Positions 1 through 9,000 of a stretch of 46,064 nt of DNA are shown here, piece after piece (position 1 is the first letter of the stretch; every line of letters starts with the position of its first letter). Under the pieces are notes generated by a model that was given only the letters and a program-made list of their open reading frames with translations, was not told the origin of the DNA and did no database searches. The position numbers and the translations under genes were made by a program. This DNA is from Candidatus Shapirobacteria bacterium (GTDB lineage Bacteria; Patescibacteriota; Microgenomatia; UBA12405), in NCBI GenBank assembly GCA_903825325.1, contig CAIKAI010000044.1:1-46064 (forward strand), given 5' to 3'.

Positions 1-3000
1 AACCACACCCACTAATTCCCCCAAAAAGCTACTTACTCCCTTAGTATTTTGAACACCGTTACTAGTTTTCACTATGGCCGATTTTGGTTGTGCGGCATTA
101 GTAAAATCAAGAGAAATATCAGCAGCTTTTGGCAACACCACCTTTGTCTTTTCAATTTTCTTTAGCTCCAAATCCAAACTTCTAAGATTATATGGCCGAT
201 ATTTATCACTTTCACTATATTTAACTCCCAATGCATCTGCCCGGGCGATTATTTGATCTCTAGCTGCCACAAAATCATTCCAAGTTGGATCATAACTCAA
301 ATTAAAATCTTCTTTAAAATCTTTCAGCCGACTCTTTTCTAAATAATTTATATTATCTTTCAAATCCGCCAAGGCTTGTTCATTTATAGTCGTCCCGGCA
401 TTTCCCCCTATCGATTCCAACTGCTGTTTTAACGAGTGATATACCGCCTCTACAGTTGCTAAATAATAGTTTTTACCTTGATTTTGATTCCTAATTAACT
501 CAAAATTAATTCCTAAATTGGGATAGGTATTTTCGACTCTTTTTGTAGCATAATCCAAGGCCTCATCGTAGTTTTTTTGAGACATGCTCGTATCAAAAGC
601 CTTTCTTTCAGCCTCTAAATTTTGATAAGCTGTTTTTGTATCCTCAGTTACTTCTGCTGTTCGACCTGTGGCATTGTCAATCATCACCACCGCCGCCTTT
701 CGGTACTCGCTCGTCGAAATATTCGAGGCATCAACGATACCCACTAAGTACGATGAGTCAATCATAGTAGCAATCATTACCTCGCCTTTGGAGCCCTTTC
801 CATAATTCTCAATTTGCGAAATTGGGATATCCATTACCAAGAGTTGTCCTTGATTGGGAATAACTGAACTATCCAGATTTGTTCCACCCGATAAATACGG
901 TACTACATCCGGCCCGGCCGTATAATAAACAAAAACATTCGTTCTATTGACTAAACTTTTTCTAATCGAAAATCCCCTCAGAGCATCCTTTTCCGCCTCC
1001 TTCATAAATTCCTGATAATAGCCGCGAGCTCTTTCGTCTTGTATATATTTTTGACTAGCATCATACAACGCCACCATATTACTAAATGTTGGCTCTTTCG
1101 CCATCGCCTCCACAAATGGTTTCATTTCCTTGACGACCACCATTTTGCCATCACGGATATCTCTCATCGCATAGGCAGTTTGGTTGAGAAGCACGTCCAC
1201 CGTCGTTTTATCAATTACCCCAATTGCTCGATATACTCGGATAGTCGGCTCATTAGCAATTTTTGGCTGTTTGATTGCCAACAATTGCCCCACTTTTGCA
1301 TTTGGCATGGGCACCGAAATTTTTTCAACATTAAATCCTCTGTCTTTTAATCCAACTTCCAACTCATCGAAAGTAGTCATCGGTGTCGCCGGTGCAGGCA
1401 GTGCTGCTGTCGGTTGTACATTTGGAACTACTTCTTCATTCGATTCATTACTTACATTTTGATTTTGGGTGGAATTTGTATACAAAAAATCATAACCCGT
1501 CATTTTTGTTTTCAAATATTTATCATGCCACTGTTTTGCCAAATCTTGCCCCACGTAAAACAAATGCCAGTCCTCTTGTGGTAAACCATCCACCGGCGCC
1601 GAATATGTTTTGATAAAACCATATTTATATGCATTTTGTTCCACCCACATTCCCGCTTTAGTTTTACCAAATCCCGAACCAATTCCAATTGCCTGTTTGT
1701 TTTCCGGAGTACTTACATCCACTGCATACCCCGTGTTATGTTCCGATTCTTTTGGTTTGGTAGTTGCCTCTGGCGCTTGTGAGTGAGCAATTTGTTGCTC
1801 TTCCTTGGTTCTATAACCTGACATTAAATACATTGTTGCGCCATCGGCTCTTGCCGCATTAAACATTGCCGCCAGATCGTTAACCACTTCCCGAGCAATC
1901 ATTTCTTTTGGCGCCAACACATAATTATTCAAATAAGTAGCCGCTTCCACCAAATCTGGTTCAATATTATTCTTCATTTCCGCCGTCGTAACTGGTGATT
2001 TATGCAAATCACGAAAGGCAAACGGATTTACTGACATCGGTTTCAATTGATACTTATTTGGTTGTTGCCCTGGTTCCAACAAGCTTACCAGCTGTTCCAT
2101 CGCCAATTTTGCCGACCCAACGATCCATTGGCTTTTTCCTGAAATAACATCATCATAAAATTTATCCAACATAAACCAATTTTGTCGAAAACAATATTTT
2201 TCAAATAATGCCTCTTTGTTCCATATATTCTTCAGAACCGGACCTATAATGTCAGAAGTTGGATCGCCATATGGATTTTCTGTCGTTAAAGCATAAAATG
2301 CCGTGGTTAAAATAGCTCGAATATCTTCACTTTGGGTCGACACCCCGGTAACTAAATATTGAGGTGACATATTGAAAGCTGGCGTGCCAAAAAAATTGTT
2401 TGTATCAATTGTCGCCACTCTACCACCAAAGTCAATTAATTGAGCACCGTATTCTCTGGAAATAATTATATTTTTAGGCTTAATATCAGCATGGTTTTGA
2501 TATTTTTCATCAATCTCAATATTATGGATCTTATCCACTGTCTCGGCGATTTGTGCCATCCACAAGATTACTTTTGACTCATCAACGGTTTCGCCAAGAT
2601 CTTTGGAATCATTAATATATTTAGCCAAAGTTGGCCCATAAACATATTCCATCACTCCGTAGCCTGCATAGATTTGTCCATTAGAATTTACTAAAGGCAC
2701 AATATCCAACGCTACCGGAACATCCAATTTTCGATACACTGCCAATTTCTTAATCTCTGTTTGAATTCCAATCCATGGATTATCACTATAGACATTTCTT
2801 TTGATTATTACCATTTTCATCAAATGTGTATCCCACCCCGCATAGACCTCACCCTCACCTCCTGACGCCATCAACCGGCTGCTCTTTATATACCTATTCC
2901 CAACTAATTCTGATCCCGAAATCGGTTGGTTTAAAACCTGTGGATTCTGCCAAACAAGTGTTCGATATTCTTTTTCCAACTTTTCTATCTCTGCTTCCAC

Positions 3001-6000: not shown

Positions 6001-9000
6001 GGAAAACAGACCTAACTCTTGTTTTCTAGCCAAAACTTGTCGAGCTACCTCCACCACCAAATCATGATCAGATTCCGAAACACCCATTGACTGAAATCCA
6101 ACCCAAAATCTTTTCCAAATAGACTCTTCATTATCCAAATTACTTGATTCAATCCATTTCACTAGGCCACTCACACCATTATAATTATTGTTAAGTACCG
6201 ACATTGTATTACCCAGCCGTACCCAAACCAAATTATAAATCGTCTCTTTTCTTGTTGTCACATCGCTAATATTTATAATTTTACTAATTTCTTGTGTTAG
6301 ATAATTCTCTATCCCCGAATAATCAGCCGAAGCCCAGTCAACCGTTTTATAGATATCAATGGGAATCTTAATTTGCTGTACTTGATTTATCACATCAACA
6401 TAGTTAGAAATTGTTATTGCTTTGTTTTCATTTTTTATTGCCGACCAAGTCCACCTCATTTGCCATGACCCCCATACTTTTTTAATCAACTTAATGTTTT
6501 TTAGACTATCTAATTTCATTTCCGCCGCTTGATAAAAATGGTCATTTCCCACCAATACCGGTGCTAATAAACTAGCGGTTGCTGTTGATAGTCTAAAATC
6601 ACCATCTTTGCCAACATTACTAACTAGTGCATCCCTTATTTCCATTTCTCTACCCTTTAAACTCACTCCCAACACAGCTTTAACTGTTACCAAACCAGTA
6701 TTGACATTCTTTATGGCGATTACATCATTCGCCAATGAATAGATTATCGTCGCTCCAGAATCAGCGGCATTTATTGCCGCCTCAAAACTTTTATTTGTTG
6801 AACTTTGTCGATAATATGGCGACAACTTACTCCTATTATCTTGGGTCTGAGATATTTCAACTTTGCGGGCGAGATTGACAACGGTCGTATTATTTTGATC
6901 CACCTGACGAACGGCATTAACCGCAGTTGGGTTAAGTAATTCTTCCACCTTCTTATCCTCTTCTTGTCTGGCAGTTGGATTCACTTTGTAAGTCAATCTT
7001 CTTAAAGCCATCGATTGTTCTTCATAAGCTACTTGTATTCTCTCCCACACTGATGATGGAGCTACTGGAGTGTTATTTACATTTGTCTTTTCCGTATCTA
7101 ATATTGGTTTGTAGTTTTCTAGGGTTAGTCTCTCTTCTGAAGTTAAATCCTTTCTCGTTTGTAATTGATTGACTCTATCCTTGGTTAATTGGATGGCTCT
7201 AATGGCGGCATCTTTTCGAGCTGATGTTTTAACAATCTTTAATCTTTCGATAGCAATGTCTTTGTTTTGAATTAATTGACCTAACTTATTTAGATATTCA
7301 TGACTATTAACAAAATTTGCCACATTAATAACTAATTGATTGGCTTGATCTACTTGATGCTTTTGATTTAATTCTCCAGCCTGTTTTAACTTGTTGTCAA
7401 CGGTTGTTTGTCGAATTGGACAGGAATCAAAGCCTGGGGAACAATTTTCGGAGCCTTCAATTTTAAATAATGTTCCAGAGTCATATAATTTTTTCCATCC
7501 GAAAGGTAAACCAAAACCAACCTTTCCCTTAATTACCATCCCATCTTTTACCAACTCATATTTTCCATCTACCAACATTACGGTAGCTCCAGTAATGTGG
7601 TTGATGTCTATTGAATCGTAAGGTGAAAGTTTTGCAATTTCAAAATTAAGTCGAACTCCGTTAACATACGTCCAGGGAACTTCATTGTCATCGCCGATTC
7701 CAACAACATTGCCACTATCATCACGATAGATGAAAACTTCATCAATACTACCAATTTTTTCATATTTGTTAACACTAAACGAATTACCGCCAAAAATTGG
7801 CCACATGTTTTTCAAAACAGGTGGGTCTTTGCCGACAGATTTTAATAAGTCCACCGCTAAGTCGCTCCATTCTTTGCGCTTTTTATACAGTTCTCGTATC
7901 ATGTCAGTTGAATAATTTTCTGATAAATTTATTTTCGCATCGACAAATTCTTGGGCTACTTGGGCCAATTTGGTCATAGATTTGATCGACCGAAAATTAT
8001 TGATAATATCTCCAATGGACAATTTAAAACCAGTGATTCCGGTCGCCTCGATTAAGGAGTCAATTTTACTTTGAGTTTCGGTTTGGGTGGCATTTTCTGA
8101 TAAGTCCAAAGCTTGATTAATAAGAACTTTTGTATCAACCAATCTATTGACCAGGATTGGCCATCGAGTTATGGATTCACTCTCCAATATTGCTAAAGCC
8201 ATTTTTTGGTCACCATAGAGAGCAGTCAATTTATTTAAGGCATTAATTGCCGCTGAAATTTGATTTTTTAGCATTTTTCTTAGCTCAGGTGAATTGAGTC
8301 GATCAACAAAAGCTTGATAAACTTCAGGTTCTACATACGAATTTTTGTTATTTATAAAATAAGCAAAATAATCATAGATACCACCATCAGATTCCATCTC
8401 AATTAATGTCGAGGCAACATACTCGTCTGATAAGGTTGCATCGGTTTTGAATGCCACGATTTCATCACGAGCGTTGGCCAAATAATAGTCACTTAATACA
8501 TGAACCAGTTTATCAAGCTCTGGCATTGACGTTGCTTTAGCATCACCAACCAAATTGAGATCGACAATCATAAACAAAGCATTGAGTATGTGTTGTTCCT
8601 CATGAATATAGGTACTCTCCCTTTCTTTTGTTAGACCATGGCGCACAACAAATACCAATCCATTAACTGAACTATCTTTTACATTAAAACCCGCAAATCC
8701 GGCAGTTTGAAAAGCTAAATTCTGATCATCCTTTGTTGGCTTGTTTATCCCCCCATTAATTTTTTCCCAGTTGTAGGCTACGGCATAGTCAGTGTCATCT
8801 CGAGTACCTAAAGCAATTGACATGGGACCAATCCGCACATCAATATCACCAACACTGTCTACCCCAAAATAATCATAAAACATTTTTTTGCCATCATAAG
8901 TACCGTCTACTTTTAGATATTTCTTTGCATTTTCTAATACACGTTTGTGATTTACATAATATTGAAGGAAAATTTTCCCTACTGTAAACAAATATTTGTC

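Follow-up and report, generated by a model that had tools for sequence, protein, structure and literature searches.

The contig CAIKAI010000044.1 (assembly GCA_903825325.1), assigned to Candidatus Shapirobacteria, was analysed over its whole length of 46,064 nucleotides (nt; hereafter the window), with the focus on a giant gene on its minus strand in which a module of approximately 900 amino acids (aa), ending in a Hanks-type Ser/Thr protein kinase, occurs twice in tandem. The gene occupies a stop-free frame of 10,737 codons (nt 1–32211) whose 3' end lies beyond the contig start, and its probable GTG start, situated 7 nt past the stop of the gene before it, gives a product that opens with M/V-KKKAGLQFAGLILMVAAVFLTTNLV. 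The predicted protein is larger than 10,700 residues, in an uncultured ultrasmall bacterium (Shapirobacteria-like) belonging to the Candidate Phyla Radiation (CPR; Patescibacteria). Judging from the sequence, it is almost certain that the duplication is real, old, tandem and in frame, that its units are A-B-kinase modules as delineated in Table 1, and that the two Ser/Thr kinases retain intact catalytic residues.

Table 1. Features of the giant gene and of the gene preceding it. P0001 and P0002 are two giant relatives described in the text; HMM, hidden Markov model
Feature	Residues (aa)	Position (nt)	Strand	Evidence and remarks
Giant gene		1..32181	-	>10,727 codons from probable GTG start at 32181
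SIMPL/DUF541 gene		32189..32845	-	Immediately upstream of giant gene; Pfam PF04402, E = 1.1e-19
Module 2	8247-9130	4822..7473	-	A, spacer, B, N-extension, kinase
Module 1	9145-10062	2026..4779	-	A, spacer, B, N-extension, kinase
Adaptor A, copy 3	7115-7300	10312..10869	-	A-region HMM 303.8 bits; CSPGFSSC at nt 10813-10836
Adaptor A, copy 2	8247-8425	6937..7473	-	A-region HMM 300.9 bits; CSPGFDSC at nt 7420-7443; Cys pair 8257/8264
Adaptor A, copy 1	9145-9330	4222..4779	-	A-region HMM 292.3 bits; CSPGFASC at nt 4723-4746
Orphan domain B, copy 2	8455-8770	5902..6849	-	Mixed alpha/beta
Orphan domain B, copy 1	9385-9701	3109..4059	-	
Kinase N-extension, copy 2	8756-8837	5701..5946	-	Conserved with P0001 and P0002
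Kinase N-extension, copy 1	9686-9769	2905..3156	-	Model: helix, hairpin, long helix
Kinase 2	8838-9113	4873..5700	-	PF00069 49.5 bits, E = 5e-13; K8872, HGDVKPSN 8975-8982, DFG 8995-8997
Kinase 1	9770-10045	2077..2904	-	PF00069 54.3 bits, E = 1.7e-14; K9804, E9819, D9909, N9914, D9927, D9963
VanY-type D-Ala-D-Ala carboxypeptidase domain	10104-10221	1549..1902	-	Pfam PF02557, E = 1.5e-22, 80.2 bits; NCBIfam VanY models also match

The tandem arrangement was apparent from a chunked self-comparison by BLASTP, in which aa 8246–9113 are collinear with aa 9145–10045 (42–65% identity per 250-aa chunk, E = 1e-21 to 1e-91), and from a global alignment, in which modules 1 and 2, both in one frame, share 50% amino acid identity over 914 columns. 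These results agree with the original prediction, made from the sequence of this window, of a duplicated module of some 900 residues, each copy of which ends in a kinase. At the nucleotide level, families of direct repeats were identified at spacings of 2697, 2700, 2793 and 2796 nt and with identities of 70–85%. The CSPGFxSC motifs of the two linkers, which had been described as offset by exactly 2,700 nt, are actually 2,697 nt apart. The accompanying estimate was approximately 88% linker identity over more than 110 nt; the best 110-nt window, located within A, is 91.8% identical (nt 4481–4590 versus 7178–7287) at the offset of 2,697 nt, and the best one at an offset of 2,700 nt is 80.9% identical.

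Both copies were aligned with a third, partial copy and with two relatives, and a profile HMM was built for each part, which resolved the modules into four. From the N-terminal side, these parts are region A of ~180 aa (a C-x6-C linker followed by ~170 mostly helical residues), a spacer that is poorly conserved, gap-rich and variable, region B of ~320 aa, and an N-extension of ~85 aa together with the kinase. The stretch in front of the kinase had previously been regarded as one helical region of about 400 aa without a recognised family; the absence of a recognised family stands, but the stretch is a composite of A, spacer, B and N-extension. Neither A nor B matched any Pfam, NCBIfam or PDB sequence, and an AlphaFold model of A plus B, obtained from a four-sequence alignment, was poor (predicted local distance difference test, pLDDT, 51; predicted template modelling score, pTM, 0.27). 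A fold search with this model returned noise, the top match being the GDI domain of YpkA (E = 0.5, TM-score 0.12), which was given no interpretation. For the N-extension of copy 1, pLDDT means over ten-residue blocks were 81–97 across residues 1–66 and 75–80 up to residue 80.

Adaptor A is present three times in the giant protein and once in the relative P0001. The third copy is 47–53% identical to the other A copies, is a member of DNA repeat families D1, D2 and D6, and heads a different cargo (aa 7300–8245, including an HExxH module). An A adaptor of disulfide type, as judged from its Cys pair, that is reused ahead of different cargo is new. Domain B, on the other side of the spacer, was found in exactly two copies, both of them in the giant protein; with no homologue outside it among 1.84 billion representative proteins, this ~320-residue orphan is likewise new.

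Both kinases exceed the gathering score of the Pfam Pkinase model (PF00069, 31.7 bits) in the search that had been proposed as a check on them (Table 1). All of the motifs quoted for them beforehand were found, namely (copy 2/copy 1) AKGGMGQV/ASGGEGEV, HGDVKPSN/HADIKPKN and GTPAYNISPQ/GTPAFNMSPQ, with VIIK and DFG in both. In an alignment of 38 kinases, the VAIK Lys, the alpha-C Glu, the catalytic Asp, the DFG Asp and the alpha-F Asp are invariant columns, and these residues are present in both copies, while the catalytic-loop Asn is nearly invariant across the same alignment. Both kinases are non-RD (HGD, HAD); their catalytic loop follows the Ser/Thr-type D-x-K-P-x-N pattern, and their P+1 loop has GT. 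In both, Ala takes the place of the first glycine in the Gly loop, and the APE motif is not kept: it reads SPQ in the two copies, with SPK at this position in P0001 and SPS in P0002, such that its Glu is gone from the whole small family. This loss of APE is a variant feature and, at the sequence level, is compatible with membership of the protein kinase superfamily. AlphaFold predicted the N-extension and kinase 1 as a complete two-lobed kinase (pLDDT 88.9, pTM 0.88) with helices assigned alpha-F to alpha-I, and the model, together with the motifs, upholds the view that both copies look catalytically competent.

By sequence, the closest solved structures are those of Mycobacterium tuberculosis PknE, Staphylococcus aureus PknB/Stk1, PknG and StkP, and the best fold matches of the kinase 1 model are Stk1, PknG and PknB (TM-score 0.73–0.79 over the target); the scores of the eukaryotic STE20, NEK, PDK1 and AAK1 kinases are at levels similar to those of the bacterial matches. 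The best partial match in NCBIfam is PknB_PASTA (NF033483), which aligns with the kinase part only and scores 59–62 bits versus a cut-off of 450. No PASTA domain, transmembrane segment or sensor domain was detected beside the kinases by Pfam and by the hydrophobicity of the giant protein. Additionally, no known effector kinase (YpkA/YopO, LegK, OspG, NleH or SteC) was present among 61 PDB sequence matches (E <= 1e-3) or the 50 best fold matches, and comparison of the kinase model with viral structures yielded generic giant-virus kinases, which were uninformative. The suggestion that the two kinases resemble translocated effectors more than ordinary bacterial signalling kinases was thus not borne out, the best matches being PknE, Stk1, PknB, PknG and StkP with no known effector among them. 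On the evidence of sequence and model, both are genuine Hanks-type Ser/Thr kinases of bacterial type and are probably active, and by sequence they fall outside the PASTA-kinase family and any known effector-kinase family. While the kinase fold itself is known, they represent a new, distinct and very rare Hanks-type sub-family, characterised as non-RD, with SPx in place of APE and with a structured N-extension.

The two modules are 59% identical in DNA and 49% in protein, and identity at third codon positions is 45%, so that synonymous sites are near saturation. With synonymous sites in that state, the ratio of nonsynonymous to synonymous substitution rates (dN/dS) was estimated by the Nei-Gojobori method at ~0.25 overall and 0.23 for the kinase, and these values point to purifying selection on both copies. 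In an identity-based analysis with 500 bootstraps, each of the two kinases had the other as its nearest neighbour in 99.8% of replicates. In P0001, which has a single module, A is joined directly to the kinase without B. Taken together, the single A-kinase unit of P0001 and the mutual proximity of the two kinases indicate that the duplication is lineage-specific and occurred after B had been inserted; the most likely order of events, as read from the sequences, would be insertion of B followed by duplication of the whole A-B-kinase unit. Within A, identical residues are encoded by identical codons in 76% of cases versus ~50% elsewhere, and dS is 0.6–0.8 versus >1.3 elsewhere. This pattern suggests that A was homogenised at a later stage by gene conversion, or that it is subject to constraint at the nucleotide level.

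An exhaustive HMMER search of the 1.84 billion representative proteins with a two-module profile produced 32,581 matches, only two of which fell below 1e-30, and both are giants. P0001 (4,404 aa, E = 8.8e-84) belongs to a cluster with a member annotated as originating from a Candidatus Shapirobacteria metagenome-assembled genome (MAG), and P0002 (6,217 aa, E = 1.1e-37) carries one kinase with an N-extension and a Pfam match to Peptidase_M48. The remaining matches, among the 150 best listed, are ordinary kinases aligned over the kinase part only at E >= 1e-20. P0001 and the giant protein are built on a common chassis: an N-terminal region rich in Cys pairs, a hydrophobic region rich in Gly and Ala, the P-loop region, and A and the kinase, of which P0001 has one each. 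Between these shared parts lie thousands of residues that are not related. A peptide-pattern scan located a family member in one of 185,579 GTDB species genomes; module-specific peptide patterns recovered no relatives from genome contigs, JGI metagenome contigs or viral contigs, and a word-indexed homology search with module 1 gave no match. Matches to PHROGs were confined to generic kinase families, and a tblastn search of plasmids with the kinase returned distant ordinary kinases only (27–32% identity). The family is extremely rare.

Beyond the modules, little of the giant protein could be assigned. Searches of the entire protein against Pfam (E <= 0.01 for large pieces, E <= 1 for ten sub-segments), NCBIfam and PHROGs identified only the two kinases and the VanY domain, and PDB sequence searches found nothing significant for the residues ahead of the kinase, the P-loop region or the central part of the protein; the approximately 10,000 residues without a recognisable family are new. 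Extra kinase-like domains suspected by eye at aa ~3800 and ~6150–6320 were rejected, as the family-specific kinase HMM and Pfam were blank there. The VanY domain directly follows module 1, and after it come ~500 residues without a match, with the gene continuing past the contig. A P-loop region of ~900 residues (aa 2251–3145, nt 22777–25461, minus strand) contains the motifs SAQTGYGKS, DEGS and QGTGRDR and is helicase-like by eye. It is 39% identical to the corresponding part of the Shapirobacteria relative P0001 and has no Pfam, PDB or PHROG match; its motifs resemble those of superfamily 2 (SF2)/DEAD proteins by eye, and it may be a very divergent SF2/SecA-like ATPase.

A second internal duplication, of 24–26% identity, connects aa 4988–5340 with aa 7685–8033 (nt 16192–17250 and 8113–9159, minus strand), and each of its copies has one HExxH motif (HEHRH and HEEQH). 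The sequences suggest an ancient duplication of zincin-like metallopeptidase modules. A helical element, whose two occurrences (aa 4598–4686 and 5586–5670) share 64% identity, stands on either side of the first HExxH copy. Three tandem repeats of ~85 residues, 44–52% identical and with one Cys pair each, occupy aa 170–426 (nt ~30930–31700, minus strand), and a short near-perfect peptide repeat (TVPNASRTTTNNSTA) was observed at aa ~3548–3585 (nt ~21460–21570). The G+C content within the gene is ~0.36–0.40 over nt 1–20,000 versus 0.43–0.48 over nt 22,000–32,000. Across the whole window (1–46064), GC skew of the plus strand is uniformly and strongly negative (-0.16 to -0.37 per 2 kb).

The gene immediately upstream encodes a SIMPL protein with an N-terminal membrane anchor, a feature that is shared by the SIMPL genes of the loci L001 (9304–9969) and L003 (19541–20323). 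In each of the three known loci the giant gene has a SIMPL gene next to it, the copy of the window being 36% identical to that of P0001 and 26% to that of P0002, and judging from these sequences the two genes appear to form a conserved unit. A further new aspect of the locus is that it falls into a very rare family of apparently exported giants that are paired with SIMPL genes. The other genes neighbouring the pair are cellular (RuvC, MurB, a metallophosphoesterase, and a MacB-like ABC ATPase with its permease). MurB is 100% identical to a database protein, its named relatives at 60–69% identity come from MAGs of Microgenomates or Candidatus Shapirobacteria, and no record matched RuvC exactly. 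In closer organisms, whose MurB proteins are 77% and 70% identical to that of the window, RuvC, RuvA and RuvB are contiguous and no giant gene occurs at the site, which makes the SIMPL-giant cassette an accessory element or, at the least, one whose location varies. At the P0001 locus, the pair is situated between dnaA-dnaN and a cluster of VirB4-, TraC- and PrgI-like genes, and the stretch just downstream of the P0001 gene (L001, 24775–32289) encodes a C39-like protein of 1,119 aa, a VirB4/AAA_10 ATPase, a TraC-like protein and a PrgI-like protein. This locus matches the relaxase-less chromosomal type IV secretion system (T4SS) reported near dnaA in CPR bacteria (bioRxiv 10.1101/2025.01.22.634366). 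A second very large gene was noted at nt 38318–46063 (minus strand), of which 2,581 codons are visible before it runs off the other contig end; its domains include ones of fibronectin-III and purple-acid-phosphatase-N-like type. Next to it, in the same orientation, come genes for a MacB-type ABC ATPase and an FtsX-like permease (nt 35692–38321, minus strand).

The N-terminus of the giant protein consists of KKK followed by ~20 hydrophobic residues, as in the relative P0151, and has the appearance of a Sec-type signal or anchor, in keeping with the prediction of a giant anchored protein. Its Cys residues are distributed very unevenly. Of 35 in total, 34 form 17 close pairs spaced 7–21 residues apart and one is alone; 28 of them make up 14 close pairs within aa 196–1310 (nt ~28280–31626), none occurs in the ~5,800 residues between aa 1311 and 7125, and thereafter there are only the three C-x6-C linker pairs and the lone Cys. 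The last 9,427 residues thus contain seven Cys (0.074%) versus 0.44–1.3% in four cytosolic neighbours, and the binomial probability of seven or fewer in that length is 1e-9 even at a baseline of 0.4%. The same Cys pattern was found in P0001 and P0002. In monoderm bacteria, exclusion or pairing of Cys is recognised as a signature of proteins that are exported (PMC2823432), and the giant protein displays both components of that signature, an N-terminal signal or anchor and Cys that are absent or paired, as features of its sequence. A moderately hydrophobic region rich in Gly, Ala and Ser (aa 1050–1310, nt ~28280–29060, minus strand), which contains three Cys pairs and is conserved in P0001, could constitute membrane spans or, alternatively, a membrane-inserting or translocation element. 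Because of the N-terminal signal or anchor, the near restriction of Cys to close pairs and the C-terminal peptidoglycan peptidase, the whole polypeptide is probably exported.

The best explanation of the locus as a whole, which we put forward tentatively and at slightly less than even odds, is that the duplicated modules form part of an exported multi-enzyme giant and that the kinases act in a partner cell. On this view, an episymbiont would export the giant as a modular protein that unites multiple enzymes. Since the kinases require ATP, their activity would begin only once they had entered the cytoplasm of the partner (host) cell; their targets there would be host proteins, and the substrates of the two paralogues have probably come to differ. 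Boundaries between cargoes would be marked by the A adaptors, which would also serve as recombination handles; the higher nucleotide and synonymous-codon identity within A, and its recurrence before unrelated cargo, speak for the latter. Delivery into another cell, taken as a step by itself, is possible but more doubtful than export. The idea that the kinases are effectors is a plausible and reasonable hypothesis that is supported by context and not by kinase similarity, the context in favour of an exported, non-signalling role being the signal or anchor, the pairing and exclusion of Cys, the VanY domain, the lack of an adjacent sensor, PASTA domain or transmembrane segment, the variable location, and the T4SS-like genes beside a relative. 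A more specific version, which is speculative and on balance unlikely, would see the protein as a contact-dependent cargo carrier of CPR bacteria, exported with SIMPL and possibly with a relaxase-less T4SS-like apparatus, in which disulfide-stapled A adaptors mark cargo boundaries (and maybe sites of processing or recombination), and from which the kinases, the metallopeptidase-like modules and VanY are delivered into a host bacterium or archaeon that is rewired by phosphorylation.

Several observations weigh against export and delivery. The hydrophobic stretches at aa 1055–1100 and ~1278–1296 could be membrane spans, which would place the C-terminal 9,400 residues in the cytoplasm; the P-loop region needs ATP, as do the kinases; and the kinases themselves are, by sequence and fold, ordinary bacterial Hanks-type enzymes unrelated to known effectors. 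The Cys baseline was drawn from four neighbouring cytosolic proteins only. Sec signals are normally absent from T4SS substrates. Furthermore, no secretion genes are present in the 46-kb window, where none is visible because the contig ends inside the giant gene.

The alternative that survives best, while still rather improbable, is a cytoplasmic scaffold tethered to the membrane of the producer, in which the N-terminal ~1,050 residues lie outside, aa 1055–1300 cross the membrane and ~9,400 residues remain in the producer cytoplasm, with the kinases phosphorylating the giant itself or regulating processes of their own cell such as envelope growth or attachment. The requirement of the kinases and the P-loop region for ATP would be satisfied directly, the hydrophobic segments at aa 1055–1077, 1078–1096 and 1276–1294 are conserved in P0001 and P0002, and the kinases are most like bacterial signalling kinases. 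VanY-type enzymes, too, can act on cytoplasmic precursors. Such a scaffold is difficult to reconcile, however, with the exclusion of Cys throughout the C-terminal part, where the Cys that do occur are conserved C-x6-C pairs typical of disulfides, or with three disulfide-type Cys pairs within the hydrophobic region itself. No sensor, PASTA or FHA domain or phosphatase partner was detected, and the gene is accessory and variable in location.

Less probable again is that the giant is a polyvalent protein of a mobile element, which moves with DNA through a conjugation-type (type IV) apparatus and whose enzymes counter the defences of the recipient. The concept and domain repertoire of such proteins have been described (PMC5512222), and the combination of many enzymes in one architecture (peptidoglycan peptidase, HExxH motifs, P-loop region and kinases), the T4SS-like genes beside the gene for P0001 and the variable chromosomal location would all be in line with it. 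However, neither the window nor the gene lists of L001 and L003 showed an integrase, relaxase or replication gene, and T4SS clusters of CPR bacteria mostly lack relaxases (bioRxiv 10.1101/2025.01.22.634366), which also counts against this alternative. What defines the kinases of polyvalent proteins as a family is that their C-terminal lobe has been lost (PMC5512222), whereas a full C-lobe is present here; moreover, the PHROG matches are generic, the plasmid matches are distant (27–32%), the pattern scan of viral contigs was blank and the N-terminus is a Sec-type signal.

At a slightly lower level still, and improbable in our estimation, stands an adhesin-like surface fibre in which the kinase folds serve as binding modules, or as ecto-kinases that phosphorylate targets on the surface or outside the cell with ATP leaked by the host. 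The export signature of the sequence would be explained, giant surface proteins have been reported for CPR predators (PMC8080830), and the replacement of the APE Glu (SPQ) and of the first Gly of the Gly loop (by Ala) would be in line with it. Yet all phosphotransfer residues are conserved in both paralogues and, across long divergence, in two distant relatives, which is unexpected for mere binding modules, and extracellular ATP is scarce. Finally, an assembly artefact or chimera, in which misassembly of two strains or paralogues produced the duplication, is extremely unlikely: assemblies are frequently broken by giant repetitive genes, both giant genes are cut by the contig ends and a 42-nt exact repeat, the longest word common to the modules, lies within A, but the copies are merely 59% identical in DNA and 49% in protein, both are in frame inside a 32-kb open frame and under purifying selection, and no repeat was detected at the inter-module junction (~nt 4780–4821).

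With respect to known systems, the two kinases resemble the PknB/Stk1/PknE type in their full two-lobed fold, their catalytic residues and their Ser/Thr-type catalytic and P+1 loops. They differ from it in having no juxtamembrane segment, transmembrane helix, PASTA or other sensor domain, in being non-RD, in having SPQ for APE and in their unique N-extension of ~85 residues; furthermore, they are tandem-duplicated, and within an apparently exported protein they sit towards the C-terminal end of the 10,737 residues that are visible. PknG of M. tuberculosis, which is among the top sequence and fold matches, is flanked by non-kinase domains and has no membrane anchor. It is a soluble, non-RD kinase (lacking the RD arginine) that is reported to be secreted into macrophages. 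Unlike the protein described here, PknG possesses rubredoxin and TPR domains, which were not found in the giant, and with its ~750 residues it does not belong to a giant modular protein. Translocated effector kinases (YpkA/YopO, LegK1-4, OspG, NleH and SteC) follow the same logic as that proposed here, a kinase made in one cell acting in another, but they are single proteins that pass through type III or type IV secretion systems into eukaryotic cells, whereas here the target would be a prokaryote and the carrier a giant with a Sec-type signal.

In the polyvalent proteins that phages and conjugative elements encode (Iyer, Burroughs and Aravind 2017, PMC5512222), many unrelated enzymatic domains are likewise united in a single chain, among them kinases, zincin-like peptidases and helicase-like ATPases as well as cell-wall enzymes, and the T4SS-like neighbourhood that is seen at the relative P0001 is a further likeness. 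In their kinase clade the C-lobe is missing, while here it is present along with a contiguous HxD catalytic loop; in addition, the giant protein is far larger, has an N-terminal signal or anchor and was found without hallmark genes of mobile elements. MARTX-type and polymorphic toxins are alike in their beads-on-a-string arrangement of cargo enzymes with recurring linkers, in which a conserved pre-cargo element could serve as a recombination handle, and the Gly/Ala-rich hydrophobic region could, as in MARTX-type toxins, serve membrane translocation. Pfam identified neither RTX repeats nor a cysteine-protease processing domain, nor any Rhs, HINT or VENN element, in the 10,737 residues of the giant protein, and processing at the A adaptors is speculation.

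Giant proteins have also been described in ultrasmall or predatory bacteria, namely in Omnitrophota (bioRxiv 10.1101/2023.11.21.568195) and as membrane giants of Vampirococcus (PMC8080830), with proposed roles in attachment or attack and, in some, with cell-wall-degrading domains. The protein described here is like them a very large, mostly unannotatable protein of a host-dependent bacterium, and no sequence relationship between it and them was found. In those papers, the word 'kinase' occurs only in pyruvate-phosphate dikinase, histidine-kinase-like ATPase and phosphoenolpyruvate kinase, and Hanks-type modules do not appear. For CPR bacteria, a T4SS-like system has been reported as needed for epibiotic growth in the one species that is genetically tractable, the substrates of which are not known (bioRxiv 10.1101/2025.01.22.634366).

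The locus illustrates how a giant protein may grow, with whole cargo modules duplicated behind a reusable adaptor that bears signs of homogenisation. With regard to how CPR/Patescibacteria control their hosts, a giant, apparently exported protein in which a cell-wall peptidase accompanies two apparently intact Ser/Thr kinases makes a concrete candidate for a factor directed at the host. If the proposed delivery were true, these kinases would be the first candidates for host-directed kinase effectors in Patescibacteria and would represent effector kinases that act between prokaryotes.

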